64,000 bases of DNA, taken from contig OZ244999.1 of assembly GCA_965223265.1 (NCBI GenBank), positions 3,808,001-3,872,000 on the forward strand, in the 5' to 3' direction. Source of the DNA: Planctomycetota bacterium (GTDB taxonomy: Bacteria; Planctomycetota; UBA8108; SXIK01). Below the pieces are notes generated by a model. That model was not told where the DNA came from. It did not search any database and saw nothing but the letters and a program-made list of their open reading frames with translations. Position numbers and translations under genes: made by a program. Within the stretch, counting starts at the first letter, position 1. Every line of letters starts with the position of its first letter. This document shows positions 2,660-49,386 of this stretch, piece after piece.

Positions 2660-2677
2660 CGCTTCGTTAGAGTAGGT

Positions 2678-8534: not shown

Positions 8535-9567
8535 CAGGTAGGATTGCGCCTTCCTCACTCGGCGTGGCTTCAAGGAGATGGTCGATGACGCGGTCGGAGT
8601 TGATGCCTCGCGCTTCAGCGTGAAAGTTCGTCAAGATGCGATGGCGAAGCACCGGATGCGCAACACTTTGAATATCCTCGACTGCGACGTGATAGCGACC
8701 GGCGAGTAGCGCTCGCGCCTTGGCACCGACGATGAGGAATTGACACGCGCGCGGCCCTGCACCCCAGGCCACGTAGTCCTTCACGAAGTCGGGAACAACC
8801 TCGTTGTCGTCGCCCTCGAGCCGCGTCTGGCGAACAAGCTTCATGGCGTAGTGCACGACCGGGTCAGCGACCGGTACCCGGCGAATGACGCGCTGGAGCT
8901 CGCGGATCTCGTCAGCGCCGAACACGACGCTCGCGTTGAGCTCGAACTCTTCCGTCGTGCGGCGTATCACCTCGAACTCTTCCTTCCAGTTCGGATACTT
9001 CACGAAGATCTTGAACATGAAGCGGTCCTGCTGCGCTTCCGGCAGCGGATACGTCCCTTCCTGCTCGATAGGATTCTGAGTCGCCAAGACGAAGAAAGGA
9101 TCGGGCAGCACATGCTGCTCGCCGCCGACGGTCACCTGTCGTTCCTGCATGGCCTCGAGGAGAGCGGCCTGCGTCTTCGGTGGCGTTCGATTGATTTCGT
9201 CGGCGAGCACGACATTGGCGAAGATCGGTCCGCGCAAAAACCTGAACGCACGCGAACCACTGGTGCGGTCCTCATGGATCACCTCTGTGCCGGTGATGTC
9301 CGCCGGCATGAGATCGGGCGTGAACTGAATGCGGTTGAATTCGAGTCGCAGACTATTGGCGAGCGTGCGCACAAGTAACGTCTTAGCAAGACCAGGAACG
9401 CCCTCGAGGATGCAGTGTCCTTGAGTGAAAATCGCGATCAGGAGTTGCTCGACGACCTCGTCCTGGCCGACGATCGTTTTTGCGATTTCCTGCTTTAACG
9501 TTGAAAACTTCTTCACCATCGCATCGACGGACTCGAGCTCCGGCTGGTCGTCACGTGGCATGTTCAA
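8503..9567 (-). CDS. moxR: MoxR-family AAA+ ATPase
   Basis: Walker [24 protein letters not shown], Walker [41 protein letters not shown]. Confidence 0.97.
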
Positions 9568-9692
9568 CCTCTTGGTGGGACCTCATTGGATTCACTGTGA
9601 CTGTTTTCATTTTCATTTCGATTGTTTTGGTAAAGACTCCCTGTGCCGCCAGGGCAACGGAACGATCATAGCCCACCATACGGGGACCTCTG

Positions 9693-12424: not shown

Positions 12425-15400
12425 TCCTCCTGACCGTTGATCTCAGGCTCAACCTGCGGCGAGTCGCCATCGGCGGCGTCTGCATCCACTTCGTTTGAGT
12501 CGTCTTCTATCGCCGCGCCTTGCGCCTCAAACCATCCGAATCCATCGGTGTTACCGAGACCGACGCCGCTGGTCAGAAGACTCAGCCGTGGCGGCAGTTC
12601 GCGCCCCTTGCCCCGAATCTCCCGTCGTACGATCTCCGCAACGTTCGGCGCGGCGTCGCCGGAGTCGCCGGCGGCCACGCGCACACACACGCTCGACCAC
12701 TTGTCGCCGCCTTCTTGGCGGTTGTAGGCCAATAGAAACGCCCCGTCGATTCCCTGCAGCGGCGGACCCGCGTAGATCACTCTGCCCGTGGCGATCTGCT
12801 TCTCCCACACCTTGCTCCAATCGGCGCCGACCCGCACCAGCCAAAGGTCATTTCCTCGGATAGCACCAGCCAAACCGTCGGGGCGATTCAGATCAGCGTC
12901 GCCGATGGCGATCAACGTTCGCCCGCGACGAGCACCGGCCGATTCGGTCGAGGGATCGAGAATCGCGTCGACAACGATGGTTCTCTCCGGCATCTCGACT
13001 TCTTGAACGACGCGACCGCTGCGCACGCTCCGGGCGCGGAGCGCCGACCGCTCGCTCGCCCAGAGAACGCCAGATTCGGTCGTGAGGATCTTCGCGGTGG
13101 TGCGCTGAGCACGCCAAAGCGGCCGTCCGGAAATCGTTTCGTAAACAGCCAGCCCACGGCGCCCAAACGCGGTCAACAGTCCGCCAGCAAACACATGCGC
13201 TTCAGGGTGGTAGCTACGAAAGCCGGGGACGAAAAACTCGCGTCTTCCTTGGAGCCAAGGTCGCCGGGGAACAAGCGTCACCCCACACGGCGAGCGCGAG
13301 CAAATTCGAATCCAATGCGGGCGCGCGCCAATCCCAGAGCACGTCGTGCCGCGGATCTGCGTCTCGAGCATGAGCTTGCCACTGTTGCGCTCGATTTGTC
13401 GCAATCCACCCGTGGGAAGAGCGACGATCGGGTTGCCGTGAAGTTCGGCGCACTCAGGAAATGAATTGCGGTCGGTCTGCAGCCGGATGCCGCCCCAATG
13501 ACGACGGCCCATATTCTTCTGAGCCAGTGGATGCTCGTAGGAGTGATGCCACTTGAGAAACAGGCGTTTGAAACGCGCGTCGCTCCTCTCGCGAGCCACT
13601 TCCTCCGCAGTGCCCGCCTGCCGCTGAACATCGTCACGCGCGCTACTGTCCCCCGGTCGAAACTCATAACAGTACAGACCCGCCGGAGTGAACAGTACGA
13701 GACGCTGATCGTCCAGGTGATACAAGGCCGGCTCTTCATGCTCGGAGCGTAGTTGCAGTTTCACCTTGGCGACGTCTGGATAGTCCAGCAGTTCAGATTC
13801 GAAAAGAACCTCACCGGCAAGATCTCGGATGCGAAGAAGGTTGTTGGAGATGACGATCAGAGCGGCACTCGGTTGCGACCCCGGTGCGGACGCAACGAGA
13901 AAGCCATCCTCAAAATCGCTCCAAAACGCTTCACGCAGCATCGCCGTCTCGAGGAGAACCTGCGGCAGCGCACTCGCCGGTCGCCCCTCCGGTTTCGTCT
14001 GGGCCACAAGCTCTGCGCGGCGCTCCTCAACGCTCGGCTCGTCCACGAGCTCAGGCACGTCACTAACAAGAAGGTCCAACAATTCGAGGCCACCCTCCGC
14101 GTCTCCTGCCGCAGTTGCTTTTTGCACCAGGTGCGCACCGGCCTCGGCCGCCATGCCGAGGTGAGTCAGGCGCAAGAAAGCATGCGAGAGCGTCGCGTCG
14201 TTGCGAACAGACACCGCGCGCGCGTGCAGCTTCTCCTCCGCCTCCACGTCGAATGCCAGACTCCACTGCTCGTCCTCACGGCAAAGGTCGCGCAGACGCT
14301 CGCTGGCGTACGCTGCGATGTCCACGTCGAGCCCCTCCGGCGACTTACCGATGACACCGTCGAGCCGCGACAAACTCGCCAAGCCGTCAACCACACGCCG
14401 ACGCGACGCTTCGTCCGAAGCATCGCCTTCCAGTAGGTTCGCCTCAAGAAGCTGTAGCGAGTACAAAGTCTCTGGCTCGTCGACAAGAGCGCGGTGCTTC
14501 GCCAAGAAATTCGACAGCAGTTTTGTTTCGCCTGCTTCGGCAGCCTCACGTACAACGCTCAGCACCTCTTTCTTCACCCGCTCGCGCACGCTCTCGGACT
14601 CGGTGCGAGCCAGCAGCTCGTAGTAGATGTCGAGTGCCGCCGAATAGTTTTGCTCAGCGCGATACAGAAGCGCTTTGCGCAGTGGCGCCTGTCGTCGGCT
14701 CTCGGCGAGATTCGTCCACGCTGCCGATTGAGGCTCGAGACTCACCACGGTTTCCGGCAGAGCGAGAATCCAACGGCCACGATGCGGAATCACGCGGCGA
14801 ATTCGACGTCGTTTGATGCGCTCGTCGAGGAGGGTGATCGAGCTGGTGACTTTCGCCGTGGAGGAGTCGACGACGACGAGCTTACCACCGTCAAGCGGTA
14901 GAATGACGCGGTCATCAGTGACGACGCCCCAGCGCTGGGGAACCTGCAGCTCTTCCTCGTAAGGCAGCCGCGAATCCTCGCCGCTCGTCAGATCGACCAC
15001 CTTGAGTTCGCTCGCGGCAGCCATCAGCAATCGCGTCCCCTGGGCGCCTAGCACGCGCACGCTTCGATCGTCGAATTCCTTCTCCCACAGGACCGCGCCA
15101 GTGCTCACATCGAACGCCGTAAGGTAGTCGCTATCCTGCGGTGCGACGACCACCAAAGGTCGATCGTTGACCTCCGCGATGATCGGGGCGGTTCGCCGCC
15201 AGCCACGGCCTCGCCGCCGGCCGCGCACGCTTGAGCGATAGTGGGACGCCCAGAGGATTTCTCCGGTGCTCGCCTCGAGAGCGGCCACGACGCCGTGGCT
15301 GGCCTCAACGATCATCACCCCGTCGCGGGACGCCATCGGCATGTCGACGAACGACGTGCCTCGCCGCGCGAGATCCATACTGTAGAGTCGACGAAACCAG

Positions 15401-16998
15401 AGGAGCTCCCCGGCCGTAGAAATACCGACCGCGGCAATCTGCTTGGCGACCACGACAACCGCGCCGAGACCCGCGCTCGTGACGACTGGCGCGCCGAGAA
15501 AAGTGAATTCGGGCAGGCCGCGGTGCGCGCCTTCTTCGCCGCTGACGTCCCACAGCCTTTTCCCGCTGTCGACGCGCAAAGCGACGAGACGATTGGGAGT
15601 AAGCTTCACCCTCCCATTGTTGTCGCGCTGCGATGAACTGAAATGGTCCACGGTGACGACAACTGGAACCGAGTCGCTGCCATCGCCGTCATCCTTGTGA
15701 CCCGAAACGCTCGGCGTGACAAGCGTCATCGAACCGTCGACTGCGCGGCGGCCACCGCTCGACGAGGCGACCTGGGCTTCCCAAACCCGCGCGCCACTTG
15801 CGGCATCCACCGCGACCACGGGTGGGGAGGAACCTTCTCGACTACGGATCACGACCAATCCCTTCCACGCCAGCACCGAAGGCGCGCGGGCGCCGCGATT
15901 CGGGTCCGCCAAGCCGCCGAAAATCCACTCAGCCCGACTGCCCAGTTCCGGCACTTCGCTTGCAGGGAGACGAAATGGTCGCCGGTCGAACGTCGCCAGC
16001 GCGGTGGGCCAAACATCAAGACTCGCCTCGCAGCTCACCGCCGCGGCCTGCAGGCGATCACGCTGCGCGAGAAAGAGAGGATGTTCGGCTAGCGCATGTC
16101 CACTCGTTGCCTTGCCGCCGACGATGACAACGTCATCGGCGTGACGACCTGCGATCTCGTCGAGCAAAAACGCCGTGCGGCGCTCGTTTCCAGCGAGCGC
16201 GTGAGCCATGGCGGCCTGCGCCAAGACCTCGGCGCGCTCGGGATCGCCGGTCTCGAAGGGCAAAAGAAGCCGCAGTTGAAAGGCTTCAGCTGCGTCCGCG
16301 GCGCGGCCACGGTCGAGCTCTCGAAGCCCCAATTGATGCCATGCGCGCGCCCCCTCGCGCGTCAGCGGGAACTGAGTCCCGATGAGTTTCAACCGCTGCC
16401 TCGCCTGACGTCCGCTGAGTCGCGGCACCGACTGGAGGAGCTCACTCGCGGCGGCTTCGTGCGTGCGACGATAAAGCGCCCGCGCTGCTTCGGGAAGCTG
16501 CGCCAGCTCGCGGACGAACGCTACCAGTAGCGGTTGGAAATAACGTCCGTCGAGGGAGGTCACGATCTCGGCAAGAACGACGTCCGCGAGAGACTCGTCG
16601 TCTACCGCGGCGGCGTCATCGTCGGGTGTAGCTTCTTCTCCCTCGCCGTCCGCTTCGGAGGGCTCACGCCGGACGCGGACACCGCCGCGCGCCAATTCGC
16701 CGCCAAGCTCGGCGTACAGATCGAGAGCTGCGCTCCAGTCCTCGCTGCCGACCAACTCTCGTGCGCGACGGAGGAGCCCTTCAGCCGTTTCATCGATGAA
16801 CAGGCGACCGTCGCCGTCCAACTCGGAAGTGGGCTCCACTGGCCTCGGTGCCGCGGCAACCACGACTTGAGCGTCCAGCGCCACCGGGCGGGAACATAAG
16901 AAACATAAGAGTGTCAGCGCAACGGCACGCACGCCGAACGGCGGCGACACGCGCGCTCGAAGACGGAAGCGACAACGACGCAATCTAAGAACTCCCAC
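12421..16998 (-). CDS. Large exported PQQ-like (BamB-type) beta-propeller protein with TPR-like helical segments
   Basis: 1525 aa, signal peptide, many A-x-D-x-x-[ST]G-x-x-x-W repeats (AVDAASGARVW, ALEASTGEILW, AFDVSTGAVLW). Confidence 0.85.
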   Translation of the reverse strand: MGVLRLRRCRFRLRARVSPPFGVRAVALTLLCFLCSRPVALDAQVVVAAAPRPVEPTSELDGDGRLFIDETAEGLLRRARELVGSEDWSAALDLYAELGGELARGGVRVRREPSEADGEGEEATPDDDAAAVDDESLADVVLAEIVTSLDGRYFQPLLVAFVRELAQLPEAARALYRRTHEAAASELLQSVPRLSGRQARQRLKLIGTQFPLTREGARAWHQLGLRELDRGRAADAAEAFQLRLLLPFETGDPERAEVLAQAAMAHALAGNERRTAFLLDEIAGRHADDVVIVGGKATSGHALAEHPLFLAQRDRLQAAAVSCEASLDVWPTALATFDRRPFRLPASEVPELGSRAEWIFGGLADPNRGARAPSVLAWKGLVVIRSREGSSPPVVAVDAASGARVWEAQVASSSGGRRAVDGSMTLVTPSVSGHKDDGDGSDSVPVVVTVDHFSSSQRDNNGRVKLTPNRLVALRVDSGKRLWDVSGEEGAHRGLPEFTFLGAPVVTSAGLGAVVVVAKQIAAVGISTAGELLWFRRLYSMDLARRGTSFVDMPMASRDGVMIVEASHGVVAALEASTGEILWASHYRSSVRGRRRGRGWRRTAPIIAEVNDRPLVVVAPQDSDYLTAFDVSTGAVLWEKEFDDRSVRVLGAQGTRLLMAAASELKVVDLTSGEDSRLPYEEELQVPQRWGVVTDDRVILPLDGGKLVVVDSSTAKVTSSITLLDERIKRRRIRRVIPHRGRWILALPETVVSLEPQSAAWTNLAESRRQAPLRKALLYRAEQNYSAALDIYYELLARTESESVRERVKKEVLSVVREAAEAGETKLLSNFLAKHRALVDEPETLYSLQLLEANLLEGDASDEASRRRVVDGLASLSRLDGVIGKSPEGLDVDIAAYASERLRDLCREDEQWSLAFDVEAEEKLHARAVSVRNDATLSHAFLRLTHLGMAAEAGAHLVQKATAAGDAEGGLELLDLLVSDVPELVDEPSVEERRAELVAQTKPEGRPASALPQVLLETAMLREAFWSDFEDGFLVASAPGSQPSAALIVISNNLLRIRDLAGEVLFESELLDYPDVAKVKLQLRSEHEEPALYHLDDQRLVLFTPAGLYCYEFRPGDSSARDDVQRQAGTAEEVARERSDARFKRLFLKWHHSYEHPLAQKNMGRRHWGGIRLQTDRNSFPECAELHGNPIVALPTGGLRQIERNSGKLMLETQIRGTTCSGIGARPHWIRICSRSPCGVTLVPRRPWLQGRREFFVPGFRSYHPEAHVFAGGLLTAFGRRGLAVYETISGRPLWRAQRTTAKILTTESGVLWASERSALRARSVRSGRVVQEVEMPERTIVVDAILDPSTESAGARRGRTLIAIGDADLNRPDGLAGAIRGNDLWLVRVGADWSKVWEKQIATGRVIYAGPPLQGIDGAFLLAYNRQEGGDKWSSVCVRVAAGDSGDAAPNVAEIVRREIRGKGRELPPRLSLLTSGVGLGNTDGFGWFEAQGAAIEDDSNEVDADAADGDSPQVEPEINGQEE

Positions 16999-37580: not shown

Positions 37581-40500
37581 TCATTCCTGTGCCGTCTCTG
37601 ACGTTGGCGTCGCCTGCCAGTAGAGCGGCAGATAGCGGTAGTACACCTCGAGCGAAAGCGTCGCGAAACAGGTCGCCAGCACCTGCCCTCCCGCTTCCGA
37701 CCACGGTCCCGTCGGGTCCCAACTGCCGCGCCGAGCGCCGGAACGGTTCTGTGATTTGACGAGGTAATCGCGCACTTCCGTGTTCCAGCGCTCCCAAATC
37801 CAGCCTTGGTACTGATAAAGAGCCAAGGTCCCGTAATAGACGAGGTACAAGTTGTCGAGGTAACCACGGCGACGCGTCTCCGTATGTATGTAGCGAGCCG
37901 CCTCCTCGATGTTGTCGTCGCCGCGGCGAGCACCAAGCAGCTGCCGCGCGAACATGCCTTCGGCAACCATCGCAACACGCGGCTCCTCTGGTTTGGAGTA
38001 ACCGTAAATCCCACGGTGCTGCCCGCTCGACACCTCGACATCAAACCAGTGGCGAGCACGGTCGAAGACGCCACCGGGAAGCTTGAGCGCGCTCCCATGG
38101 ATGCTCGTCAAGGCCATCACCTGCCAGCCGCTCACGGACGTGTCGCCGCGCAGCGGGACGACAGGCAAGTACCGCCACCCCCCAGTGTTCGGGTTCTGCG
38201 CCTCAACGATGATCCGGGCGGCCTTCTCGATCGCCGGCAGCAGACGTTCGTCGCGACTCAGGATATAAGCCTCACTGAGCGCCAACGTCGCAATGCCGTG
38301 ATTGTACATGATGTACTTCTGGTCTGACCCGCTGAGCAGACCGGACTCAGTCTGAATGCTCAAAAGCCAACGTAAAGCCCTCAAGACCGTCATACGGTAT
38401 GGACTGTCGGGCTTCACGTGGGTGTGATTCTGCCCCAGGAAAGAGAGCACCGCGAGCCCGGTGACAGCGGCGTCGCACTGGGTGTGAAACCCCGGGGCGC
38501 CGCTATCGGGAAGCCGCTGCAGAAAACCATCAACGTCCCAACGACCGTCCTCGGACTGGCACGCCGCAAGCCACTCGAGCGCCAAACGGACGGCCAGCTC
38601 AGACTCGGCGGTACCGCCCATCCGCGGCACGAGAACCTTACGGCTCTCTTCACTCCTTGCGTCGCTCAAGCTCATTCGCTTCTGCGGACGACGTTCCGGC
38701 AATCGCTTTCGCGCCGGCGCGTCGATTCCAGGAACCGGCTCGAGGGGTCGGAGGAATTCTGCGGTCGCCACCTCGGTCGGCGATGGCGTGGAGGCGTCGG
38801 CGGTGAGTGGAGCAGAGTCACCCGCGACTGGCTCCCGGCGCGCGTCCACGGCCGGCGGCGCCGGCGGAGCCCCTGATTGGCGAGACACCTCGAGTTTCGT
38901 TCTTGCCGCCGGCGACAACTCTGCTCCAATCAGATCGGCTGCGTTGTCGCTCCCTTCACCAGGCTTCTGGCTCCGCTCACCGTCGGGTAAATCGGTTTGT
39001 GGCGCGCGAAGCGGCCCGCTCGACGCGACGGCAGAGTCGACCAACGAGCCTGGCGCAGGCGACGTACTCAAAGTCGCGGGAGAAGCCTCTTGGACCGCGT
39101 TCAAACCGTCAGCCGGGGCAATCGCTGGTCGCGCCTGCGACACGTCACGCTGGCTGAGTAGCTCGGCGCGCGCGACCTCATCGCCTGCCGCGGGTTCCCA
39201 CCGACGCACCGCGTCAAGCTCGGCCGGCTCGACACGCAGGTTCTCATCGACGGCCTCTTGCCGCCGCTCGGCCAGCGCCGCAGTCTCGGGCATCTGGGGC
39301 TGAGTCGCAGCCTCAGATGGCTGCGCCCGTGGCGGCGGCAGCGGACTCCTCTGAAAACGCGCCTCGGGAGACGTCACCGCTTCGGTGCCCACCGCAGGGG
39401 CGTGCCAACGTCGCTGCGGTTGCACAGCCGCGATCAGCGGCGGCGCCGACGTTTCGAGCTGCGGTGGAGTCGGCCGCGCCGAGGCTTCACTCCTCGTCGC
39501 TTCAGCACGCGGCGCCAAACTCAGTTCCGCCTCTCGATCAGCCGACTGCGCCGGCACCGGAATGCTGCTCACGAGCTCCTCGGTTGGCGTCGTCGCCGCG
39601 TGGGTCAGCGGCGGTAGAACTTTCGGAGGTAGCGCCGGCGCCTGCACCTGTGTCCGCGCCTGCTGGACCTGCTCAGCCCGCACTTCGGTAGCGAGCGACG
39701 GAACGGTCTCGACGACAGTTCCTACCGGTCCTGGACGGGGAGTCTCCGCTGCAACTTTCAGACTCAGTCCGACGCCCACCGGCGTCGTGGCGTCGACCTC
39801 ATCGCTTGCGGGAGAAGATTCGGGCGCCGGCAGCGTGTCTGCTTCTGCGGCGACTGTGGCGAGCGCATCAGGACGCAACTGTTCGACGATCGGATCTTGG
39901 CGCCGCTCGAACGGTACCGGTGGAAGTGATGTATCGACGCGCGCGGTCGTCGCGTTCGAGAACGGTTGAACTTTCTCGAATTGAGGTACGGCGACCCTCT
40001 CCACGGCGACGTCCAGTGCAGATGGATCGGCGAGCATTGGGCTGTCGCGGAGTGTCGGTTGGGGCTCAACCGTCGCATCGAGAGGGTCCTGATCCGGCAG
40101 CTCGATTTTGATGCGTTGAGTCTCCTGTGTCAGCCGAGCCTGAAGAGTTTTCTCGATGGTCACTTCGGCGAGCACAGTCTTTGCGCGCACCTGCGCCAAT
40201 TGAGAACCGATCTGCCAGAAATAGAAGACGTAGAGGAGCCCGACATGGAGCAGCACTGCGACGACGGCACAGCGAGCGTAGAGGTTCATCGCCCAAAGCC
40301 GACGATACCGCATCAGAACCAACGTCAGGATAAACAAGACCACGGCGCCGAGGGCTAAGCCGCCGACTTGCAACAGATACTGCGTCACCGCGTCGATCGG
40401 GACGGCAGCGACGGAAAGCTCCGGCGCGACCTCGTGTGAGCGACTCTCGAAATGAAAGGACGCACCCGTCTTCGGGTCACGAACCTCATACGCCAAACCG

Positions 40501-41573
40501 AAGCCTTCGAGTAAGAGTTGCGGGGCCGAATCATCGAGCCGTGTGTTCACTGGCGGCCCGATATTCTCTGGAGAATCAACCTGGAGGGTGGTCACTTCGT
40601 TAGGATCAAGGCCGAGGAGGCGGCAGCGGCTTCGGTAGAGATCACGACTCCCAAAGCCGCCATCGCGACTCGAAGAAAAGTAGAGGAACGTGCCACTCGG
40701 ACTGAACGCGGGGCGTTCCTCATCCCTCTCGGTCACGAGGGAGGCGAGCGGCTGCGGCTCAGACCAACCGCGAAGCGATCCATCGGGTGGAGCGATGGCA
40801 TAGGCCAGCTCGAAGTCAGCTGCTTGCCAATTCTCAAGCGGCACGTCGTCCCATGAAGTGGGCGGGGCAAACAGAAACCCACGTGGCCGATTCGTCGCGA
40901 AGACAATCAGTCGCCTCGAGGGGTGTAACGTCGCGCCCACGTCATCAAACGGAGAATTGATCTGCGATCCAAGCGCGCGGGGGGGCGACCAAGCGCCGTC
41001 CGCGAAGCGGCTGGCATAGAGGTCGAAACCGCCAAAGCCTCCGGGGCGATTGCTCGCGAACAATAGAAGCGTGCCGTCGTGACTCAGCGTCGGCGCGATC
41101 TCATCGTGCGGCGAATGGAACGCGGCCTCCTCACCTCCGAGAAGAGTCGGGCCAGTCCATCCCTGCGGTGTCAAGTGACGTACAAAGATGTCACGCGTCC
41201 CGGCAGCGGTCTTCAGCGCGACGAGGAGGCGCGGGGCGCTCGACGGAATGGTTCCAACGACGGTTTCGTCCTGCCGTGCGCCTGGGCGATCGTGAATCTC
41301 TTCGGGCGGGGACCAGAGCACACTGCGCACGTTCAAGCGGTCCCGAGAATCCCAAATTGCATCGCCGTCTCGGTAGATCCACCTCACGTATCCAAACTTG
41401 AGGCCAACCCAGATGAGGACACCGAGCAGCAGACAGAGAAAGGCGACACTCCAGCCAGCAATCGTCCAGTACTGAAACCGACCCCACCTGCCTGCTGCGG
41501 CGACGGTGTGCTCCTCGTCACGTTTCTTTCTAGACCGCCCACGGTCTGGTCGGTGTCGTGCGCGCCGCCTCAT
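37581..41573 (-). CDS. Multidomain membrane protein: PD40/TolB-like propeller, TMs, Pro/Ala-rich stalk, C-terminal prenyltransferase-repeat barrel
   Basis: ATGA-coupled to exbD (start 41573). PD40 repeats (PTLSHDGTLLLFASNRPGGFGGFDLY). TM with AVLLH. Barrel motifs QSEDGRW, QNPNTGGWRY, LEVYYRYLP. Confidence 0.85.
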   Translation of the reverse strand: MRRRARHRPDRGRSRKKRDEEHTVAAAGRWGRFQYWTIAGWSVAFLCLLLGVLIWVGLKFGYVRWIYRDGDAIWDSRDRLNVRSVLWSPPEEIHDRPGARQDETVVGTIPSSAPRLLVALKTAAGTRDIFVRHLTPQGWTGPTLLGGEEAAFHSPHDEIAPTLSHDGTLLLFASNRPGGFGGFDLYASRFADGAWSPPRALGSQINSPFDDVGATLHPSRRLIVFATNRPRGFLFAPPTSWDDVPLENWQAADFELAYAIAPPDGSLRGWSEPQPLASLVTERDEERPAFSPSGTFLYFSSSRDGGFGSRDLYRSRCRLLGLDPNEVTTLQVDSPENIGPPVNTRLDDSAPQLLLEGFGLAYEVRDPKTGASFHFESRSHEVAPELSVAAVPIDAVTQYLLQVGGLALGAVVLFILTLVLMRYRRLWAMNLYARCAVVAVLLHVGLLYVFYFWQIGSQLAQVRAKTVLAEVTIEKTLQARLTQETQRIKIELPDQDPLDATVEPQPTLRDSPMLADPSALDVAVERVAVPQFEKVQPFSNATTARVDTSLPPVPFERRQDPIVEQLRPDALATVAAEADTLPAPESSPASDEVDATTPVGVGLSLKVAAETPRPGPVGTVVETVPSLATEVRAEQVQQARTQVQAPALPPKVLPPLTHAATTPTEELVSSIPVPAQSADREAELSLAPRAEATRSEASARPTPPQLETSAPPLIAAVQPQRRWHAPAVGTEAVTSPEARFQRSPLPPPRAQPSEAATQPQMPETAALAERRQEAVDENLRVEPAELDAVRRWEPAAGDEVARAELLSQRDVSQARPAIAPADGLNAVQEASPATLSTSPAPGSLVDSAVASSGPLRAPQTDLPDGERSQKPGEGSDNAADLIGAELSPAARTKLEVSRQSGAPPAPPAVDARREPVAGDSAPLTADASTPSPTEVATAEFLRPLEPVPGIDAPARKRLPERRPQKRMSLSDARSEESRKVLVPRMGGTAESELAVRLALEWLAACQSEDGRWDVDGFLQRLPDSGAPGFHTQCDAAVTGLAVLSFLGQNHTHVKPDSPYRMTVLRALRWLLSIQTESGLLSGSDQKYIMYNHGIATLALSEAYILSRDERLLPAIEKAARIIVEAQNPNTGGWRYLPVVPLRGDTSVSGWQVMALTSIHGSALKLPGGVFDRARHWFDVEVSSGQHRGIYGYSKPEEPRVAMVAEGMFARQLLGARRGDDNIEEAARYIHTETRRRGYLDNLYLVYYGTLALYQYQGWIWERWNTEVRDYLVKSQNRSGARRGSWDPTGPWSEAGGQVLATCFATLSLEVYYRYLPLYWQATPTSETAQE

Positions 41574-41986
41574 TCCGCCCCTTGAACGTAGGCAATGTTG
41601 GGATACTTGAACCCTACGCGCACGCAAATCTCGATCGTCTCGACGAGCGGACCGACGAGCCCTCTGACGTCCGGCCGCACGACGACATCACCGTCTGGTT
41701 TGGCGGCATGCCTCTCGCGTACGATCTGCTCAAGCTCATCGAGTGCACGCACACGACCGTCGACAATCTTTTGTCCGTCCTTGTCGATGTTGATCACCAG
41801 CAGCTCCGATACGGTACCGATGGGCATGTCGGAGCGGCTCTTCGCGAGTCGCACAGACTCATCGCGTTCCGCCTCGTGGAAACGACTCGTGGCGATAAAG
41901 AACACGACAAGGATGAACATCATGTCAATGAACGGCGTCATGTTTGGCATGACGCCGTTGGAACTTCTATCCCGTCGGACTCTCAT
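41570..41986 (-). CDS. exbD: ExbD/TolR family biopolymer transport protein
   Basis: NMTPFIDMMFILVVFF with the conserved TM Asp; VVVRPD. Confidence 0.93.
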   Translation of the reverse strand: MRVRRDRSSNGVMPNMTPFIDMMFILVVFFIATSRFHEAERDESVRLAKSRSDMPIGTVSELLVINIDKDGQKIVDGRVRALDELEQIVRERHAAKPDGDVVVRPDVRGLVGPLVETIEICVRVGFKYPNIAYVQGAE

Positions 41987-42783
41987 GCTCTGATCTGTTT
42001 CTCGTCGCGTTTCTTGCGGCGGTGAGCGGACTGACCTTCCGGCTCGGGCACCGCATCGTCGCCGTAGTAAAACTCGAGAAACCGTGACGAAGCCTCCTCG
42101 ACGCTATCGATGACGCGATCGCCGCGCCCCTTGAAATAGTAGTTCAGAACCATCGCAGGAATTGCCACGCTCAAGCCGGCCGCGGTCGTCACCAGGGCGC
42201 GGTAGATTCCGTCGGAGAGTTTCTGCGCTCTTTCGGTCGACTCTGCAGCACTCGCCTCGCCAAAGCAGAGGATCATCCCGAGAACCGTGCCCAGCAGTCC
42301 AAGCAGCGGCGCCAAGTTGGCGACGATCGAAAACGGCCTTAGACGCCGATCGAGGAGATGCATCTCTTTGGTCACGATCTCCTCGAGTGCGGCTTCCGCA
42401 TGCTCTTCGTTTCGATGAAGCCTTCCGACCCCGGCCTGCAGCACGCGACCGATGAGTGTATCGCCGACGTCGACCTCCTCACTAGTGGTCGCAGCGGCAG
42501 CGCGCGACGGCAAAGCCTGTTCGACATCGTCGACCAGATCCGGCGTACCAATACGGGAACGGCGCAGACTGATAAGGCGCTCAATTGCTGCCGTGGCAAT
42601 CACGAACGAGCAAAGAAAGATGGGATACATGAGCGGCCCGCCCTTCATCATCAGCGTGAATACCGTCTCCTGTGAGGCTGACTGAGGTGCTTCTGCCGCC
42701 GCGGCGTCCTGAGCGCACGCAAGTGACGTTGCAGCGAGCGCCCCGAGCGCGGTGACAACGTTTCTAAGACCCGTTCGGTCCAT
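41983..42783 (-). CDS. exbB: MotA/TolQ/ExbB proton channel
   Basis: GGPLMYPI, APLLGLLGTVLGMI, ALVTTAAGLSVAIP. Confidence 0.95.
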   Translation of the reverse strand: MDRTGLRNVVTALGALAATSLACAQDAAAAEAPQSASQETVFTLMMKGGPLMYPIFLCSFVIATAAIERLISLRRSRIGTPDLVDDVEQALPSRAAAATTSEEVDVGDTLIGRVLQAGVGRLHRNEEHAEAALEEIVTKEMHLLDRRLRPFSIVANLAPLLGLLGTVLGMILCFGEASAAESTERAQKLSDGIYRALVTTAAGLSVAIPAMVLNYYFKGRGDRVIDSVEEASSRFLEFYYGDDAVPEPEGQSAHRRKKRDEKQIRA

Positions 42784-42785
42784 AC

Positions 42786-45700
42786 TCAGTCGATCTCCAA
42801 TCTGCGCAAGCGTTCTCGGGCCAGTTTCGCCTCGTCACTCTTCGGGTACGACTTCACGACGTTGCGATAGTACTTTCCGGCATTTTCCGGATCTTTCAGC
42901 TCTTCGAAGCAGCCCGCCACTTGGAGCACGGCCTTCGACGTCCACTCTTCGTAAGCGAAGCTCGCCTCGACTTTGAGAAACTCAAGAATCGCTTTGCGGA
43001 ACTGTTTGCGGGCGACAAGGCACTGACCAACCTGAAACTGCGCCCGCGCCGCCGTTGGTGTCGAGTTTCCAGCGGCGGCCAGCGAGTATGCATCGATCGC
43101 CTTGTCCAAAGCCCCAAGGTTCTCGTGGGCCCAGCCCTCTCCGAAGTGAGCCCGGTACGTTGCGTCATGATCGGGATAACGCTCACGAAAAGCCGTGAAC
43201 ACCTTCAATGCCACATCGAAATGGCGATCTTCCAATTCGCTTTCACCGTGACCGAGCATGGCAAGTGGAGCCTCCCGGCTCTCCGGGAACGATTCGCTGA
43301 TGCGTTGAAACAGTTTTCCGGCCGACGTCACCTTGTCCTGATCAAGAAGGGTTTTGGCGGCGAGATAGGCCAGTTCCGGGAAGTGGTCGCTCTTGGCGTA
43401 GCGGGCGTGAAATCGCTTGAATGTAGCCAGGAGCTCCTCGTGTTCCTGAAGCTTGTAGTGAGCCCAGCAAAGCCGATACAAAGCACCTTCTTGGTGTTGA
43501 CTGCTTTCAAACCGCGGCGTCTCCATCAACTTCAACAGAAGCGCTCTCGCGTTCTCATAGTTCTTCTGTTCGAACTGCATCTCTGCAAGCTCGAGCTGAA
43601 CGACGAAACTGAACTCCGCGTGCCGTTTGTCGTCGGCAGACGCTTCCAAGATCGCCAACTGGTCTGCGAGTTCCTGATACGTCTCGACGGCCCTCTCAGG
43701 TCGGTCCATGCCGCGGTAGCACCATGCAATCTCGTACAAAATGCGACTCATTTCGCTCGGCGAATTCGGCGCTTCCTTTAGTTTCCAAAGCATCGCCAGA
43801 GCCTCTTCGTGCTGCCCTGTCTTGGAAAGCTGGCTCGCTTCCTCAAGCAGCACTAGGCTGAGGCGGGAGTCGTCGGGGTTCCGTTCGCGAAACTGAGCCA
43901 GCACCTCCTGTGCTTCGTCACCCCTGCCACTGGCTCGAAGACTCAACGCCAGTCGGTACTGAGCATCGGCGGCAACAGCGCTGTCCGGATAGCGATCAAC
44001 GATGCGACGAAAGTATTTTACGGCACGTTCATGCTCTTCCTGCTCGGAGCGATAGACGCCCACAAAAAAGAGCGCTCGCGGTAAGAACTTTGACTTGGGG
44101 TGGTTCTTGATCAGCCGGCGGAATCCTTTCTCGGCGAGGCTCTTCTTCCCCTCCTCGTGAGCGGTCTGACCAATTTCCAAGAGCACCTGATCACTGTATG
44201 GGTGGTCCGGATCAGTCTTCAGAATCTCCAGGTAAACGCTGCGCGCCGCCGACCAATTTTGCGCCAACTGGTGACTGTGTGCGATCTTGAAATGCGCGTC
44301 CCGTTTCTGCGCCAGAAGCTCACTTCGAACAGACTCTGGCGCGTTTTCGACGGCCTCGAGGAACGCGGACAACCGCTCGATAGCGACGTCATATTGTCCC
44401 AATTGGTAAGCCGCGTCGCCGCGATAATACGCGACCGAGAGCAGCTGAGGATCTGCACTGTTCACCGGCACTTCGACGCTGGTGAGATAGTCGGTCGCCT
44501 CCTGATACTTTTCCTGGAGGTGCAGGGCCTGCCCGACTCTCACTCGTGCGCGCGCGATCGCCGCGGCGTCGACGCTCGCAGTGGCGCTCGACACGAATCC
44601 CTCATAGGCCTGGATCGCGCCAGCCAAGTCACCGGCGGCGAATCGATTCTCTCCCGCCAACTGCTGAACGTCCGGCAAGTATGCGCTCTCTCCGTAGCGT
44701 GCAAGAAACTGAGAGCAGGCCTCGCCCGCCGCGGTGTAGTCTCCAGCGCGGTGCAGACAGAACGCCAGCAGATAGAGCGCATGATCGGCTTTCGACGTCG
44801 AGCCGAAATCCTGCAGAAAAGATCGAAAGGAACTCGCTGCGCCAGAGTAATCTTCAGCTGCAACAGCATTCAGACCGAATTGAAGCTCGAGATCGGCGCG
44901 CAGCGCGCTGCGGGGAAACTTCTGAACAGCAGCTTCAACAACCGCCGTCGCGGCCTCGATCTTGCCGTTCGACTTGAGCAGTCGTGAGAGGACGAGCGAG
45001 GCGTGATCACCGACACTCTCCGAGTCAACGAGCTCGCCCAAAAGATCCTCTGCCGCATCGCCTTTGCCGAGCTCGATGCGGGCTCGCGCGAGCAGAAGAA
45101 GCGCCTGATGTTGGTGCTCGCCGTTGCCCTTCGACCCTATGGTCTTCGCCAGAACCTGCTCGGCCTGTTCGAACTTCCCGGCCCGAAAAAGAGCGCTGCC
45201 AAGCCCGAAGCTTCCCAGCTCACGGAAGACACTATTTTCGGAGTCGGCCAGGCTCTCGAAGAGCTTGCTGGCACCAGCCTCATCACCCTGCTCGGCAAGC
45301 ATGAGGGCGACCATGTACCGGGCGTCTTCTGCATGGTGGCCGCTGGACTGTGCGACGTGGCGAAAGATCTTCAACGCGTCGGCAGCACCCTCTTCACCCT
45401 TCTGTGCAAGGTGGTAGAGACTCATGCCGAGATAAAACGTGGCGCGATCGTATTCGTCGCCCTGCGGCTTTGACGTCAAGAACTCCTTGTAGCGGTCGAC
45501 CGCGTCGTGGAACTCCTTCAGGTGATAGCGGCACTCCGCTAGGCCGAGCGTAGCGATCGCCACGTGTTTTTGTTTGGCACCGCTTCTCACGACCCATTCG
45601 AAGGCCTTCTCCGCGCCGCGGTAGTCTTGCAACCTGAGCAGAGCTTGCCCCAGAACCCGTGTCGCCTCGGCCTTCACTTTGAAGCGCTTCGATGAAAGAG

Positions 45701-46205
45701 CGCGACGCAGCGAGGCGACGGACGCCTCGAGATGCTTTCGCGGTGAGAACTCTTCGCCGTCTTGCGTCACAGACGGAGGCTTCGTGGCGACGTGGTAGTG
45801 ACTCAGCCCCAACGCATAGTGGACCAATCCCAAGTCACGGAATTCTGGGTGCTGAACGACGAACTCTTCATACTCAGGAATCGCGACGTGATAGAGTTGA
45901 CGATTGAAAGCGTAGTTAATCTTGAGGAATTTTTCTCTCACTGGATCTGCCTTACGCCGCTTCGAGCGCGACTCAGACTGCGCAAAAGAAGACGCAGTCA
46001 TGCAGACGCAGAACGCAGCCAGTGTGACGAGGGACAGCGACGAAAGCCCAGCTCGGAAGCAACGCACGCTGATACCGAACGAGCGCACATCCCGATCGCT
46101 GCAAATCGATGGCGACGAAATCACGCCCCGCGCAAAACGTAGCGCGCCGCTTTGGCTCGCTATTTCGCGGTCGTTGGGTCTGACGGCCATTCTGTGCTCC
46201 AACAT
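42786..46205 (-). CDS. Very large exported TPR-repeat protein (CpoB/BamD-like repeats); start uncertain
   Basis: Many TPR-like units with YP.S..A..A.Y.L motifs; signal-like LSLVTLAAFCVCMTASSFAQ. Confidence 0.88.
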   Translation of the reverse strand: MLEHRMAVRPNDREIASQSGALRFARGVISSPSICSDRDVRSFGISVRCFRAGLSSLSLVTLAAFCVCMTASSFAQSESRSKRRKADPVREKFLKINYAFNRQLYHVAIPEYEEFVVQHPEFRDLGLVHYALGLSHYHVATKPPSVTQDGEEFSPRKHLEASVASLRRALSSKRFKVKAEATRVLGQALLRLQDYRGAEKAFEWVVRSGAKQKHVAIATLGLAECRYHLKEFHDAVDRYKEFLTSKPQGDEYDRATFYLGMSLYHLAQKGEEGAADALKIFRHVAQSSGHHAEDARYMVALMLAEQGDEAGASKLFESLADSENSVFRELGSFGLGSALFRAGKFEQAEQVLAKTIGSKGNGEHQHQALLLLARARIELGKGDAAEDLLGELVDSESVGDHASLVLSRLLKSNGKIEAATAVVEAAVQKFPRSALRADLELQFGLNAVAAEDYSGAASSFRSFLQDFGSTSKADHALYLLAFCLHRAGDYTAAGEACSQFLARYGESAYLPDVQQLAGENRFAAGDLAGAIQAYEGFVSSATASVDAAAIARARVRVGQALHLQEKYQEATDYLTSVEVPVNSADPQLLSVAYYRGDAAYQLGQYDVAIERLSAFLEAVENAPESVRSELLAQKRDAHFKIAHSHQLAQNWSAARSVYLEILKTDPDHPYSDQVLLEIGQTAHEEGKKSLAEKGFRRLIKNHPKSKFLPRALFFVGVYRSEQEEHERAVKYFRRIVDRYPDSAVAADAQYRLALSLRASGRGDEAQEVLAQFRERNPDDSRLSLVLLEEASQLSKTGQHEEALAMLWKLKEAPNSPSEMSRILYEIAWCYRGMDRPERAVETYQELADQLAILEASADDKRHAEFSFVVQLELAEMQFEQKNYENARALLLKLMETPRFESSQHQEGALYRLCWAHYKLQEHEELLATFKRFHARYAKSDHFPELAYLAAKTLLDQDKVTSAGKLFQRISESFPESREAPLAMLGHGESELEDRHFDVALKVFTAFRERYPDHDATYRAHFGEGWAHENLGALDKAIDAYSLAAAGNSTPTAARAQFQVGQCLVARKQFRKAILEFLKVEASFAYEEWTSKAVLQVAGCFEELKDPENAGKYYRNVVKSYPKSDEAKLARERLRRLEID

Positions 46206-46569: not shown

Positions 46570-49386
46570 TCAACGGCAAAGACGAAACTCGCACATCGTG
46601 AACGGGTCATCTGCGGTCGGATCCGCACCACACGTCGCCGGAGGAGCCAGCGGCGTGTTGCCGCGAAATAGGTGATTGAGAACATTCACCATATCGGCGA
46701 GATCGAACACGGCGTCATCGTTGGTGTCGCATGCGTCACGACACGTGGGTTGATCGCCGCCCGCGAAGAGCGAGGTCAAACCGAAGATACCGTCTGATAT
46801 GTCGATGACGCCGTCGACATTGCAATCGCCACGTCGAAACGGATCGCTCCCGGTAGCGATCGCCGTGGCGCCGACGATCGCCCTCACGGTCGCTGGAGTT
46901 CCTCGCGAATTCCTCAGCGAGAATTCCACGCTCGTCTCCGATCGGCCGGGCAGCCCCATGCGAAAGTGCCGACCTGGCGCGAGCACCACGTCGCGATCGA
47001 AAATGGCGACGCTCGCTCCGTCTAGGCGAGCCCTAATCTCCAGCGGCAAAGCGCCGACGGTGTCGAGATTGACCAGCGTCAGATAGTAGTCGATGCTTCC
47101 GGCACCAAACGTTCGTCCAGCGACCACTCTTGGCACGGCCGTCGTGGCGTTGCCAGCCAGGGAAAGCTCTGTCTCCAGAAGCTGCTCCGTCAGCAAATTC
47201 GGGTGAGCGACGACGCTCTCTTGCACGATGAGTCCGTCTCCAAGAATCGACAAGCTCGCGCCCGTCGGGTGAGAGATCACGGGCAGCTCCGAAATCGGAT
47301 GGAATGTGGCGCCGATGCCGACGTCAGCGAAAAATGCCGTCGCAAGACCGAGAACCGACGCGCTGTCAGGGGACGGGCCAAGACCGACAAACTCGCTTCC
47401 TCGAAGAAGACTTTGAGAAAACCCCACGAACTTCGCCGCCGTCGCCGAGTCGCGACCAAACGGGGTCGACAGATAAGCATCCGTGAACACCGGCTTGAAC
47501 GTGTCCGACCCGCCCACCAAGAGGCTGCCACCAGGCAGCACGCACACCGCCCGTCCTGTCACCTGGAGAGCTTCGAACCCCGACAGAGCGCGATGCGGAA
47601 CCGGCACACGCGCCACGGCGGTCAGATCCTGTCCGCTAAGATCGAACCTCACCAAGACGTGCCGGTCCGCACCACCGACCCGCTCGCGCCCGTACGCAAC
47701 GAAGTACGTCTCGCCGTTTCCTTCGTGAACGTCCCAACTGTCGAAGACAACGCCAGAAGCGACGGCACCAGTGTCGACTGCATCGACGCGCATCAGCGCC
47801 GTTCCCTTCTGCTCACCGTCGACGGCAAAGAACGCAGCGCTCGGCTGTCCGCCATTGTCGAAACCATTTGAATCTAGAACCGCGAGTGCCCCGGCATCGT
47901 CCAAAGTCATGAAGGCGATGCCCACGCCGCCTCCCGCGATCGACGGCTCTCTCAACGTCAGTACATCCGTCGATTCCAAGGCGTGGTCAAAGACGCTGAC
48001 GAAGGCACTGGGAATCGCCGGAATGTATTGATAGAGCCGAAAGTCATCTACGCTGGCTGGCGTCTTGGTCGCAGCCAAGTCCCGATAGTCACCGTTAGGG
48101 AGCGGAATGCCGTCGAATTCGATCTCGGGCAACCCGACCGTCTGCGTGTTGCTGAATTCGCACGCTGGCGTCACGGCACCCCGGAGACCACCCCGCGACG
48201 TCGCTACGCTGACGAAGAGCTTTCCGACCAGGGGGCCCTCGGAGACATAGCTGGTGGCATTCGGCGGCAGAGTCGCGATCTCCACTCCGTTTTCGATCAC
48301 CACGACTTCATCGATCCCAGCCTGGGTGGGAGGCGACCAACTGAGCTCGTAGCGTCTGAGCTCGTCGTCAAAGTCGCACGTCAGTGCCACCGGCTCTAGG
48401 ACAGACTCAAACTCCAGATCATACGAGATCGCCGCTTCTGCCGGGAGATTCACTGAGAAGAGGGTCGGCTGCTCATTGACTGCACCGACCGCCAAATGAG
48501 CGAAAGTGAGTTCGTTGACTCCGGTCGCGACTGCACCTGAAAGATCGATCATGCGACCGGAATAGCCAGCGTCAGAGGCGCGATACTCCGCGACACGCGG
48601 TGTCCGCCATGCGTCGACGATCCCTGCAGTCGCCAAAAACGTGTCGTCGCTGTTGAAGGCAAGGCCGACTCCTGAGCCGCGAGGCTGGTTGCCAAGCAAC
48701 CACGGACCAATCGTGAAGTGAGGCACGCCAAGCAGCGGAAAGGGGCCATCCGTGACCGAGAAAAAGAAGTCGAGAAAATATACAGCATGCGTGTCTGAGT
48801 CGTAGACGACGATCTGCTCAGCGCTGGGATGAAACGCCATCGACGTCAATCGAGCGCCTTGGGTCCCTTCGACGAGAACGAATTCCGCGATCATGCTTCC
48901 GTCGTTATCAAAGACTCCGACGTGCGGATCAGGGCTCTGCTGCAGGAACGCGTTATCGATCAAAAGCGCGTTGTTGCCGCTGGCGCCGCCGATTGGAATC
49001 TCGGCGAGACCAAGCGCAACGCCGTTGGCAAACTCTTCCGGCAAACTGAATTCGACACGTCGCGGCGTCGCAAGATCGGCAGCGGGAAATGCCAAAACGA
49101 ACGGCGCCGCCGCGCTGTGAGCGTCAAGGACCCAAAACTCTTCGAGCTGAGTCTTGTACGTAGCGTCCACCGCGCTGAGATCCCACGCGAACTGTGTACC
49201 GGCCGCCGAGTTGGTCGCACTGCGACTTCGCACCTCGGCCGGCGCTGCCGCAGCCGGATTCGCGACAGCGAGCGAGCACGAGATCACCAGTAGAGCAACC
49301 ATCCCGGATCGACGCCGCGGCGTGGACACCCACGCCGGCGACGAATCGTGGCCGCACGAAACTGCGCTGCTTGCCCGACACCCCAT
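46570..49386 (-). CDS. Exported beta-rich protein with C-terminal dockerin-like domain
   Basis: GGAGG RBS; signal ..LAVANPAAA; tail FRRGDCNVDGVIDISD...CRDACDTNDDAVFDLAD (two EF-hand-like Ca loops). Confidence 0.82.
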   Translation of the reverse strand: MGCRASSAVSCGHDSSPAWVSTPRRRSGMVALLVISCSLAVANPAAAAPAEVRSRSATNSAAGTQFAWDLSAVDATYKTQLEEFWVLDAHSAAAPFVLAFPAADLATPRRVEFSLPEEFANGVALGLAEIPIGGASGNNALLIDNAFLQQSPDPHVGVFDNDGSMIAEFVLVEGTQGARLTSMAFHPSAEQIVVYDSDTHAVYFLDFFFSVTDGPFPLLGVPHFTIGPWLLGNQPRGSGVGLAFNSDDTFLATAGIVDAWRTPRVAEYRASDAGYSGRMIDLSGAVATGVNELTFAHLAVGAVNEQPTLFSVNLPAEAAISYDLEFESVLEPVALTCDFDDELRRYELSWSPPTQAGIDEVVVIENGVEIATLPPNATSYVSEGPLVGKLFVSVATSRGGLRGAVTPACEFSNTQTVGLPEIEFDGIPLPNGDYRDLAATKTPASVDDFRLYQYIPAIPSAFVSVFDHALESTDVLTLREPSIAGGGVGIAFMTLDDAGALAVLDSNGFDNGGQPSAAFFAVDGEQKGTALMRVDAVDTGAVASGVVFDSWDVHEGNGETYFVAYGRERVGGADRHVLVRFDLSGQDLTAVARVPVPHRALSGFEALQVTGRAVCVLPGGSLLVGGSDTFKPVFTDAYLSTPFGRDSATAAKFVGFSQSLLRGSEFVGLGPSPDSASVLGLATAFFADVGIGATFHPISELPVISHPTGASLSILGDGLIVQESVVAHPNLLTEQLLETELSLAGNATTAVPRVVAGRTFGAGSIDYYLTLVNLDTVGALPLEIRARLDGASVAIFDRDVVLAPGRHFRMGLPGRSETSVEFSLRNSRGTPATVRAIVGATAIATGSDPFRRGDCNVDGVIDISDGIFGLTSLFAGGDQPTCRDACDTNDDAVFDLADMVNVLNHLFRGNTPLAPPATCGADPTADDPFTMCEFRLCR

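Follow-up and report, generated by a model that had tools for sequence, protein, structure and literature searches.

Within a 64,000-nucleotide stretch of a planctomycete genome (hereafter the window, 3.808-3.872 Mb of its contig), four co-directional genes occupy positions 37581-46205 of the minus strand; they encode a giant tetratricopeptide repeat (TPR) protein, an ExbB, an ExbD and a protein of 1330 amino acids (aa) that ends in a helical barrel. We describe here the architecture and conservation of this gene cluster, and we weigh the idea that the 1330-aa protein is a force transducer for the ExbB-ExbD motor encoded beside it. The four genes are as follows:

42786-46205, minus strand: giant TPR protein, 1139 aa
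41983-42783, minus strand: ExbB/TolQ-family proton-channel subunit, 266 aa
41570-41986, minus strand: ExbD/TolR-family subunit, 138 aa, with a transmembrane (TM) aspartate, D21
37581-41573, minus strand: whole gene of the putative transducer, 1330 aa from the ATG that overlaps the ExbD stop

The genes are closely packed. A 2-bp gap separates the TPR and ExbB genes (TGAGTATG), the start of ExbD overlaps the stop of ExbB as ATGA, and the junction between ExbD and the transducer gene is also an ATGA. The open reading frame (ORF) of the fourth gene can be extended to an upstream TTG (37581-41627, 1348 aa); this start was set aside, and the ATG at 41573, within the ATGA overlap, was preferred. The cluster is flanked by topA downstream and by a 938-aa ORF (46570-49386, minus strand) directly upstream of the TPR gene. 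The latter had no match in Pfam or NCBIfam, and each of the two flanking genes recurs only beside the closest related locus (L011), neither being a conserved neighbour.

The motor subunits belong to well-defined families. ExbB, whose N-terminus carries a signal-peptide-like extension, matched MotA_ExbB (PF01618, 96.6 bits) and ExbD matched PF02472 (70.1 bits) in Pfam. Among the more specific NCBIfam models, both proteins score somewhat better as TolQ and TolR than as ExbB and ExbD, all scores lying far below the equivalog cut-offs: ExbB reached 64.9 bits on TolQ (TIGR02796, cut-off 221) versus 44.5 bits on ExbB (TIGR02797), both under the cut-off, and ExbD reached 31.9 bits on TolR (TIGR02801, cut-off 127.3). 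All 44 operon ExbDs compared have the TM aspartate, Asp21. The ExbB signatures of TM2 and TM3, 'PLxGLLGT' and 'TTAxGL..AIP', are kept in 49-54 of 54 proteins, with T166 and T200 conserved in all 54; from the ExbB/TolQ literature, we take these signature threonines to be pore residues. Because these positions are conserved, the motor proteins look functional, as judged from their residues. The TPR protein begins with a signal-peptide-like N-terminus (…LSSLSLVTLAAFCVCMTASSFAQ), which is followed by approximately ten CpoB/YbgF-type TPR modules. It matched 22 TPR-type Pfam families, and the YbgF/CpoB model TIGR02795 scored 281.6 bits (cut-off 90.1) as 10 repeated stretches, whereas the full-length CpoB model NF008068 gave 93.6 bits against a cut-off of 383.

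The fourth protein runs from a basic N-terminus through TM1, a PD40 propeller, a TM2-TM3 hairpin and a linker to an (alpha/alpha)6 barrel. Its parts, with the evidence for each, are the following:

41397-41573, minus strand: predicted basic cytoplasmic N-terminus and TM1 (hydropathy, charge, AlphaFold2 helix 13-59)
40413-41384, minus strand: PD40 beta-propeller, residues 64-387, predicted to be periplasmic (Pfam, AlphaFold2, Foldseek)
40308-40397, minus strand: TM2, out-to-in, first helix of the hairpin (hydropathy, family conservation, AlphaFold2)
40209-40283, minus strand: TM3, in-to-out, LYARCAVVAVLLHVGLLYVFYFWQI (RCAVVAVLLHVGLL), with a TonB/TolA-type [S/A]xxxH motif and the His443 codon at 40245-40247
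40152-40172, minus strand: LAEVTIE, motor-box-like beta-strand, 25-31 residues past His443
38709-40151, minus strand: acidic linker rich in Pro, Ala and Glu, residues 475-955, 481 aa
37584-38708, minus strand: C-terminal (alpha/alpha)6 toroid with QW-type repeats, 375 aa (AlphaFold2, VIA-align, profile)

Hydropathy peaks lie at residues ~35-60, ~398-422 and ~430-455. The first 34 residues hold 13 Lys and Arg, and the loop between TM2 and TM3 reads MRYRRLWAMN; because both the N-terminus and this loop are basic, the positive-inside rule puts the N-terminus inside and the propeller, together with everything that follows TM3, in the periplasm. An AlphaFold2 model of residues 1-500 (24-row alignment, pLDDT 74.9) contains a long TM1 helix, a beta-propeller at 64-387 for which pLDDT is mostly 80-92, helices at 393-422 and 431-466, and a short strand at 470-472. 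PD40 scored 62.1 bits in Pfam, and in a Foldseek search of the Protein Data Bank (PDB) with the propeller, rows 1-20 of the matches listed were all TolB (best E 7.9e-10). The PD40 repeats also match models of the PorE/CHU_0125 family in NCBIfam at 82.5 and 58.6 bits, under cut-offs of 620 and 600.

The initial annotation, which was made from the letters alone, had described four coupled genes with a 2-bp gap and two ATGA overlaps, intact channel motifs in ExbB and ExbD, and the same order of domains in the fourth protein. The junctions are as it described, the channel motifs are retained in the counts given above, and hydropathy, Pfam and AlphaFold2 agree on the domain order. Its Pro/Ala/Glu-rich region is also present, but at 481 aa it is shorter than the ~550 aa proposed.

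TM3 is the helix that would connect the fourth protein to the motor. Its motif is A439-x3-H443, with Ala in the place of Ser. In an alignment of 108 homologues over the hairpin, His443 is invariant (108/108) and residue 439 is Ser in 84 and Ala in 24; other hairpin residues are also well kept (Cys435 in 101, Arg/Lys434 in 102, Trp453 in 103). Outside the barrel and the start Met, His443 is the sole invariant residue in a full-length alignment of 30 sequences. Loci were analysed for the best 80 of at least 589 stretches that bear a relative, and all 67 N-terminally complete ORFs among these carry [SA]xxxH within a hydrophobic helix, 60 of them caught by an [SA]xxxH scan and the remaining 7 by a stricter pattern; the short forms read ...RTRWGQSKPLRKCxxLSxxxHxLL... 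By comparison, SxxxH occurs in 62 of 6037 hydrophobic segments of the source genome, a base rate of 1%.

Beyond the membrane, an alternating-hydrophobic, strand-like motif located 24-31 residues after the His is kept in the family, for example as GxIQVAL, PMEIAID or ITVTLIS. The canonical TonB of the source genome has a similar spacing between His and strand (SSALH ... SSVRVTW), as do two orphan barrel paralogues (SAVLH ... AITVRPP and SGLLH ... GMIVSLRR). A complex prediction for two copies of ExbD 40-138 with transducer residues 452-502 gave a score of 0.02 (mark 0.32) and counts neither way. In the main text of Williams-Jones et al. (2025, PMC12204202), an SHLS motif and a 'motor box' are given for TonB, TolA and a class of transducers headed by a vWA domain, and the anchor and putative strand found here match, at the level of sequence motifs, that combination of SHLS motif and motor box. 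We consider it likely, with good but not full confidence, that the 1330-aa protein is a motor-coupled transducer of the TonB/TolA kind.

The linker that would serve as the tether is 14.3% Pro, 16.8% Ala and 8.7% Glu with a net charge of -26, and its sequence is not conserved among relatives. By contrast, the last 375 residues, ending in an invariant LEVYYRYLP, were modelled by AlphaFold2 as an all-helical toroid (pLDDT 88.9, pTM 0.87). The best VIA-align match of this barrel is squalene-hopene cyclase (SHC; 1gsz_A, Z 27.1, rmsd 3.0, 287 residues, 20% identity), and other (alpha/alpha)6 toroids, including epimerases and GH76, nearly tie with it (Z 23-26); Foldseek returned generic toroid matches only (TM 0.5-0.6). 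A profile of the barrel family found SHC in the PDB at 3e-16 through its QW-type repeats ('aLxWLxxhQsxDGxW'), the scoring stretches spanning only SHC residues 397-591. The acid motif of SHC presumably sits near residue 376, that is, outside these stretches. SQHop_cyclase_C scored 17.7 bits on the fourth protein, under the Pfam cut-off of 26.1, and no match was obtained there to VWA, TonB_C or the TolA C-terminal domain in Pfam, nor to TonB_C or TolA in NCBIfam. The label 'QW-repeat alpha/alpha barrel' used in the initial annotation is right. With cyclases, epimerases and GH76 nearly tied, the modelled toroid fold does not point to one particular function for the head.

Enzymes are nevertheless the closest likenesses of the barrel (SHC at Z 27.1, GH76, epimerases), and the protein might be read as an inner-membrane-anchored periplasmic enzyme or binding protein, a toroid acting on glycans or isoprenoids, whose gene merely travels with exbBD and whose TM histidine serves folding or oligomerisation. 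In line with this, five of the seven other barrel genes in the source genome encode plain secreted proteins with signal peptides, and the long tether may simply provide reach. We regard this as quite improbable. The likeness to SHC comes from the QW-type repeats (SHC 397-591), the conserved strand lies at the motor-box distance of TonB and TolA, and adjacency to ExbD with translational coupling (ATGA) extends over 56-57 of 61 loci in several phyla. An anchored enzyme is also hard to square with a TonB-type motif that is invariant against a base rate of 1%.

Relatives of the proposed transducer are widespread. Of 8000 candidates scored in the barrel search, 734 proteins reached E <= 0.001, and relatives are encoded in at least 589 species genomes (GTDB, one genome per species). 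Throughout the 120 relatives listed, the order TM1, large domain, TM hairpin, linker and barrel recurs; most also carry PD40, and propeller-less forms of 760-840 aa and longer forms with a second hairpin are found among them. In the public records the relatives are named 'hypothetical' or 'PD40 domain-containing'. The best 80 loci come from Planctomycetia, Phycisphaerae, Kiritimatiellia, Verrucomicrobiales, Opitutales and Candidatus Sumerlaeia. Within the source phylum, the barrel profile at 1e-40 matched 137 of the 151 genomes sampled, mostly with several matches in each, and the 14 genomes with no match at this threshold include all 8 of one family (f30). These 14 genomes (G006, G026, G031, G049, G068, G071, G085, G101, G103, G116, G130, G132, G144 and G146) are mostly 3-4 Mb in size and 90-100% complete.

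Gene order was compared in the 61 loci with at least 1.6 kb of sequence upstream of the barrel gene. ExbD lies directly upstream of the barrel gene in 56 of them, or 57 when L037 is counted, where a second ExbD adjoins the barrel gene; an ExbB homologue is present in 52, and a large TPR homologue precedes ExbB in 44 of the 54 loci with enough upstream sequence. In L087 the order is ExbB-ExbD-ExbD, a 367-aa ORF and then the barrel gene. The long, PD40-bearing form of the barrel protein occupies 34 of the 61 loci and the short form lacking PD40 the other 27, and no separate PD40 gene was found in the short-form loci. The conserved module is TPR-ExbB-ExbD-[hairpin-linker-barrel], and because 27 of 61 loci do without PD40, the TM1-propeller part is a lineage-specific addition and not part of the core. 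In the relatives sampled, the operon is conserved and occurs as one copy. Some relatives of ~1400-1900 aa (L028, L035, L037, L043, L049, L082; P0059-P0071) have an additional barrel-like domain ahead of the hairpin; the hairpin then falls at residues ~775-800, and some of the long relatives have five hydrophobic segments, that is, two hairpins.

These comparisons bear on several further proposals of the initial annotation. A conserved histidine in TM3, a barrel outside the cytoplasm, the existence of the fusion in other genomes and a place for such proteins beside exbBD are all borne out, by the alignment of 108 homologues, the positive-inside rule, the spread over at least 589 species genomes and the position next to ExbD in 56 of 61 loci, respectively. 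Misassembly as the origin of the fusion was rejected, since independent assemblies supply more than 100 proteins that have it and 34 loci show it. The propeller that the machine was said to carry is real in this transducer and has a TolB-like fold, but it is not general in the wider family, being missing from 27 of 61 loci. The functions put forward in that annotation, macromolecule uptake and envelope remodelling, are conjectures.

Beyond the four genes, the loci sampled hold no conserved neighbour except a BlaI/BlaR1-like pair directly upstream of the TPR gene in one subgroup (protease cluster in 16 loci, repressor cluster in 14). In L013 (2316-5434), for example, the repressor is of the BlaI type (Penicillinase_R, 105 bits) and its partner is an M56 membrane protease of the BlaR1 type (114.6 bits); the pair is also seen in L020 and L023.

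The rest of the source genome offers context for the motor. Two ExbB and three ExbD genes are present. There is one TonB_C gene, which stands beside a TonB-dependent receptor at 1.76 Mb; TonB-dependent receptors number two in all, and OmpA-domain matches number four (3.67, 5.35, 5.84 and 9.01 Mb). None of these TonB_C, receptor or OmpA matches falls inside the 64-kb window, in agreement with the earlier statement that TonB_C, a TonB-dependent receptor and Pal are not seen at the locus. The N-terminal domain of TolB (TolB_N, PF04052) had no match in the source genome, which is 91.65% complete.

This inventory can also be read in favour of import. The barrel might engage a gate in the outer membrane, or a macromolecule captured at the cell surface, and drive uptake into an enlarged periplasm in the manner of TonB; the energy-dependent uptake of dextran or protein reported for planctomycetes would be an example. 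The anchor and motor box are TonB-like, the genome has only two TonB-dependent receptors and one TonB_C protein, toroid folds such as GH76 and the epimerases often bind glycans, and many genomes encode several orphan SxxxH-barrel paralogues, which recall TonBs that share one motor but serve different cargo. According to the portion consulted of a 2025 review (PMC12673574), the players in planctomycete macromolecule uptake are still unknown. However, no outer-membrane gate gene is conserved beside the operon in the loci sampled, the CpoB-like TPR protein and the TolB-like propeller favour Tol over Ton, and the single operon copy, conserved in the relatives sampled, has the look of a housekeeping system. 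We therefore hold an import energiser to be rather unlikely, albeit the most serious of the alternatives.

The paralogues themselves deserve description. Besides the operon gene, the source genome has seven barrel genes, two of the orphan, TonB-like type and five with signal-peptide-like N-termini only. The two SxxxH-anchored orphans (G000:C1:907032-908642, minus strand, and 4514494-4516272, plus strand) both have a motor-box-like strand ~25 residues past the His. One paralogue with only a signal peptide lies in the window itself (9693-10805, minus strand; SQHop_cyclase_C 42.1 bits), directly upstream of genes for MoxR (8503-9567), DUF58 (7626-8573), BatA (5239-7626) and a vWA/MG2 protein (2678-5239); it is preceded by a 540-aa ORF without matches and by a 1525-aa propeller protein of the PQQ/BamB type, all within the minus-strand region 239-16998. 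In 20 loci from 20 genomes of the phylum (L091-L110), 32 of 36 barrel ORFs are of the orphan type, ~500-570 aa long; in each, a lone TM helix at the N-terminus ('PWWxISxxxH') is followed by an acidic linker and a barrel. They frequently stand in tandem, two or three together, and these 20 loci gave no match to ExbB or ExbD. Judged by their motifs, the orphan single-TM SxxxH-barrel proteins look like additional TonBs or TonB-like arms.

A bolder extension, to which we give little credence, is that barrel-headed SxxxH proteins are the main class of proton-motor transducer in Planctomycetota and their relatives. If this were true, one motor would serve both the operon copy and its orphan paralogues, which are often paired and can number a dozen or more, and barrel-headed proteins would have replaced Tol-Pal and most functions of TonB with its receptors. 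The squalene-cyclase-like head would then grip glycan cargo or outer-membrane isoprenoid lipids of the hopanoid or sterol type, and the motor would drive macromolecule capture, or remodelling of lipids and envelope, across a wide periplasm.

The other motor locus of the source genome, ExbB-ExbD-ExbD, lies between two secretin genes. In this locus (L009, G000:C1:2160000-2174000), a secretin gene is followed by 958-aa and 385-aa ORFs without Pfam matches, by ExbB, ExbD and ExbD, and by a protein combining TPR, STN and secretin domains; a proton motor with secretins on both sides is unusual. This locus shows that motors in this organism do associate with envelope conduits, and the operon could drive a surface structure, as in gliding-type movement of adhesins or the dynamics of pili or crateriform structures, with the barrel as an adaptor. 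Motors of 5:2 stoichiometry do power gliding in other phyla, and gliding is speculated upon for the vWA-headed class in the main text of PMC12204202. Yet the secretin link belongs to the other locus and not to this operon, and no adhesin, pilus, secretin or type IX secretion system-like gene is a conserved neighbour in the loci sampled. A surface or appendage motor is, in our view, highly improbable.

Taken as a whole, the four genes are best explained, with somewhat better than even confidence, as one envelope machine of the Ton/Tol type with a barrel-headed force transducer. ExbB and ExbD would form the proton-driven motor of the inner membrane. TM3, with its [S/A]xxxH motif, would dock against the outer face of the ExbB ring and thereby make the 1330-aa protein a dedicated force transducer, and the motor-box strand that follows the membrane would pair with the periplasmic ExbD dimer. 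The acidic Pro/Ala-rich tether of 481 residues would cross the periplasm, and the (alpha/alpha)6 barrel, in place of the C-terminal domain of TonB or TolA, would grip a target that lies at the outer membrane or the wall, or close by. In this lineage, the TolB-like PD40 propeller would be held at the periplasmic face of the inner membrane by the extra TM1 in the same polypeptide. The secreted, giant CpoB-like TPR protein may act as a periplasmic scaffold.

As to the cellular role, we favour Tol-Pal-like envelope work, which would be stabilisation or constriction of the outer membrane or remodelling of the wall, though only tentatively and with slightly less than even confidence. This preference arises because TolB-like and CpoB-like modules accompany the motor, because the source genome is without a canonical tol-pal locus, because the relatives sampled keep the operon as one copy, and because a regulator pair of the BlaI/BlaR1 type, associated with cell-wall stress, lies upstream in one subgroup.

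A number of observations weigh against a barrel-headed Ton/Tol-type machine. The transducer has Ala and not Ser at motif position -4, and the motor-box strand is short, AlphaFold2 giving it (470-472) a low pLDDT of ~40-55. The head is without a recognisable TonB-box-binding fold, and its barrel fold is common to many enzymes (GH76, epimerases, cyclases), so that it may have an enzymatic role. The scores on the TolQ, TolR, ExbB and ExbD models are far below the cut-offs, and the term 'Tol-like' is therefore founded on weak preferences. Directly upstream, five loci of the Planctomycetaceae type show ExbD without ExbB, and a further three show neither gene. Among the loci sampled, neither an outer-membrane protein nor Pal nor a TonB-dependent receptor is a conserved neighbour of the operon. 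Finally, the five barrel-less genomes that were checked keep 1-5 ExbB genes each; co-occurrence at the level of genomes is therefore uninformative.

Cell division is unusual in planctomycetes and their relatives, and the means by which they take up macromolecules are not known. To our knowledge, they largely lack a recognisable Tol-Pal system and have few TonB-dependent receptors. The module described here is a conserved, single-copy operon that would link a proton motor with a periplasm-spanning arm of a new kind, and for this reason it provides a concrete, genetically testable candidate for how planctomycete cells power work on their outer envelope. It would also widen an idea put forward in 2025, namely that 5:2 motors accept the TonB/TolA anchor as a portable 'plug' able to bear unrelated heads, and the large number of orphan paralogues with a barrel head suggests that such arms form a whole repertoire.

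Tol-Pal is a known system whose parts list the module recalls. The motor belongs to the family found there and scores slightly higher on the TolQ and TolR models, and a single operon joins it to a TolA-like anchor and spacer, a TolB-like PD40 propeller and TPR modules of the CpoB type. Unlike the soluble periplasmic TolB, however, the propeller is fused to the transducer and tethered to the membrane; the source genome has no TolB N-terminal domain, the locus has no Pal/OmpA gene, the transducer is without the TolA C-terminal domain, and the TPR protein, at 1139 aa, is more than four times the 263 positions of the CpoB model. A merger of Tol-Pal-type modules in one envelope protein, with PD40 repeats, is also seen in PorE/CHU_0125, the Bacteroidota envelope lipoproteins with TPR, PD40 and OmpA-like domains, but the present protein is without an OmpA domain, has inner-membrane TM anchors where those are outer-membrane lipoproteins, and is coupled to a motor operon.

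TonB and the present protein both have a TM helix that runs N-in/C-out and contains [S/A]xxxH, its His being invariant; both also have a strand-like motif ~25 residues beyond this His, a periplasmic spacer rich in Pro and genetic coupling to exbB-exbD. The present protein differs in having three TM helices and approximately four times the length, in being without TonB_C and in having no TonB-dependent receptor nearby, and the source genome keeps a separate canonical TonB beside such a receptor. The head, for its part, shares its fold, its QW-type repeats and its best structure and profile matches with class II terpene cyclases and prenyltransferase-type toroids (1gsz/3sqc), but it is a single barrel of 375 aa where the cyclase has two, its Pfam score is under the cut-off, and the likeness lies in the repeat motifs.

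The closest published system is the vWA-headed class of SHLS transducers, encoded downstream of TPR-tolQ-tolR-tolR in bacteria of the Planctomycetes-Verrucomicrobia-Chlamydiae (PVC) group (Williams-Jones et al. 2025, Mol Biol Evol, PMC12204202). As far as its main text describes them, those proteins and the present one have in common an SHLS-type TM helix with Ser and His, a tether, a globular head that is not that of TonB, and a position downstream of TPR and tolQ/tolR-like motor genes in PVC bacteria. In other respects they differ: the head is an (alpha/alpha)6 toroid here and vWA there, one exbD/tolR gene is found here and a heterologous pair there, the tether measures ~480 aa here and ~100 there, the anchor here is the second helix of a TM hairpin, and TM1 and the TolB-like propeller have been added in this lineage. 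The words cyclase, prenyl, toroid, terpen and PD40 are absent from the main text of that paper, nor does this text mention a barrel head, a TM hairpin, a tethered propeller or a large family of orphans. In the literature on planctomycete ExbB, TonB or TolQ and on cyclase-like transducers, we found no description of barrel-headed transducers, PMC12204202 alone being relevant. The initial annotation had called the machine new; relative to that main text, this holds for the barrel head, the hairpin and the propeller, but, as the same text reports, a portable SHLS anchor with a foreign head was already published in 2025. The transducer falls outside TonB/TolA, since it lacks the C-terminal domain that defines them, and outside the vWA-headed class, since it is without a vWA domain. 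In every feature compared, it nevertheless shares its anchor and its neighbourhood with both.

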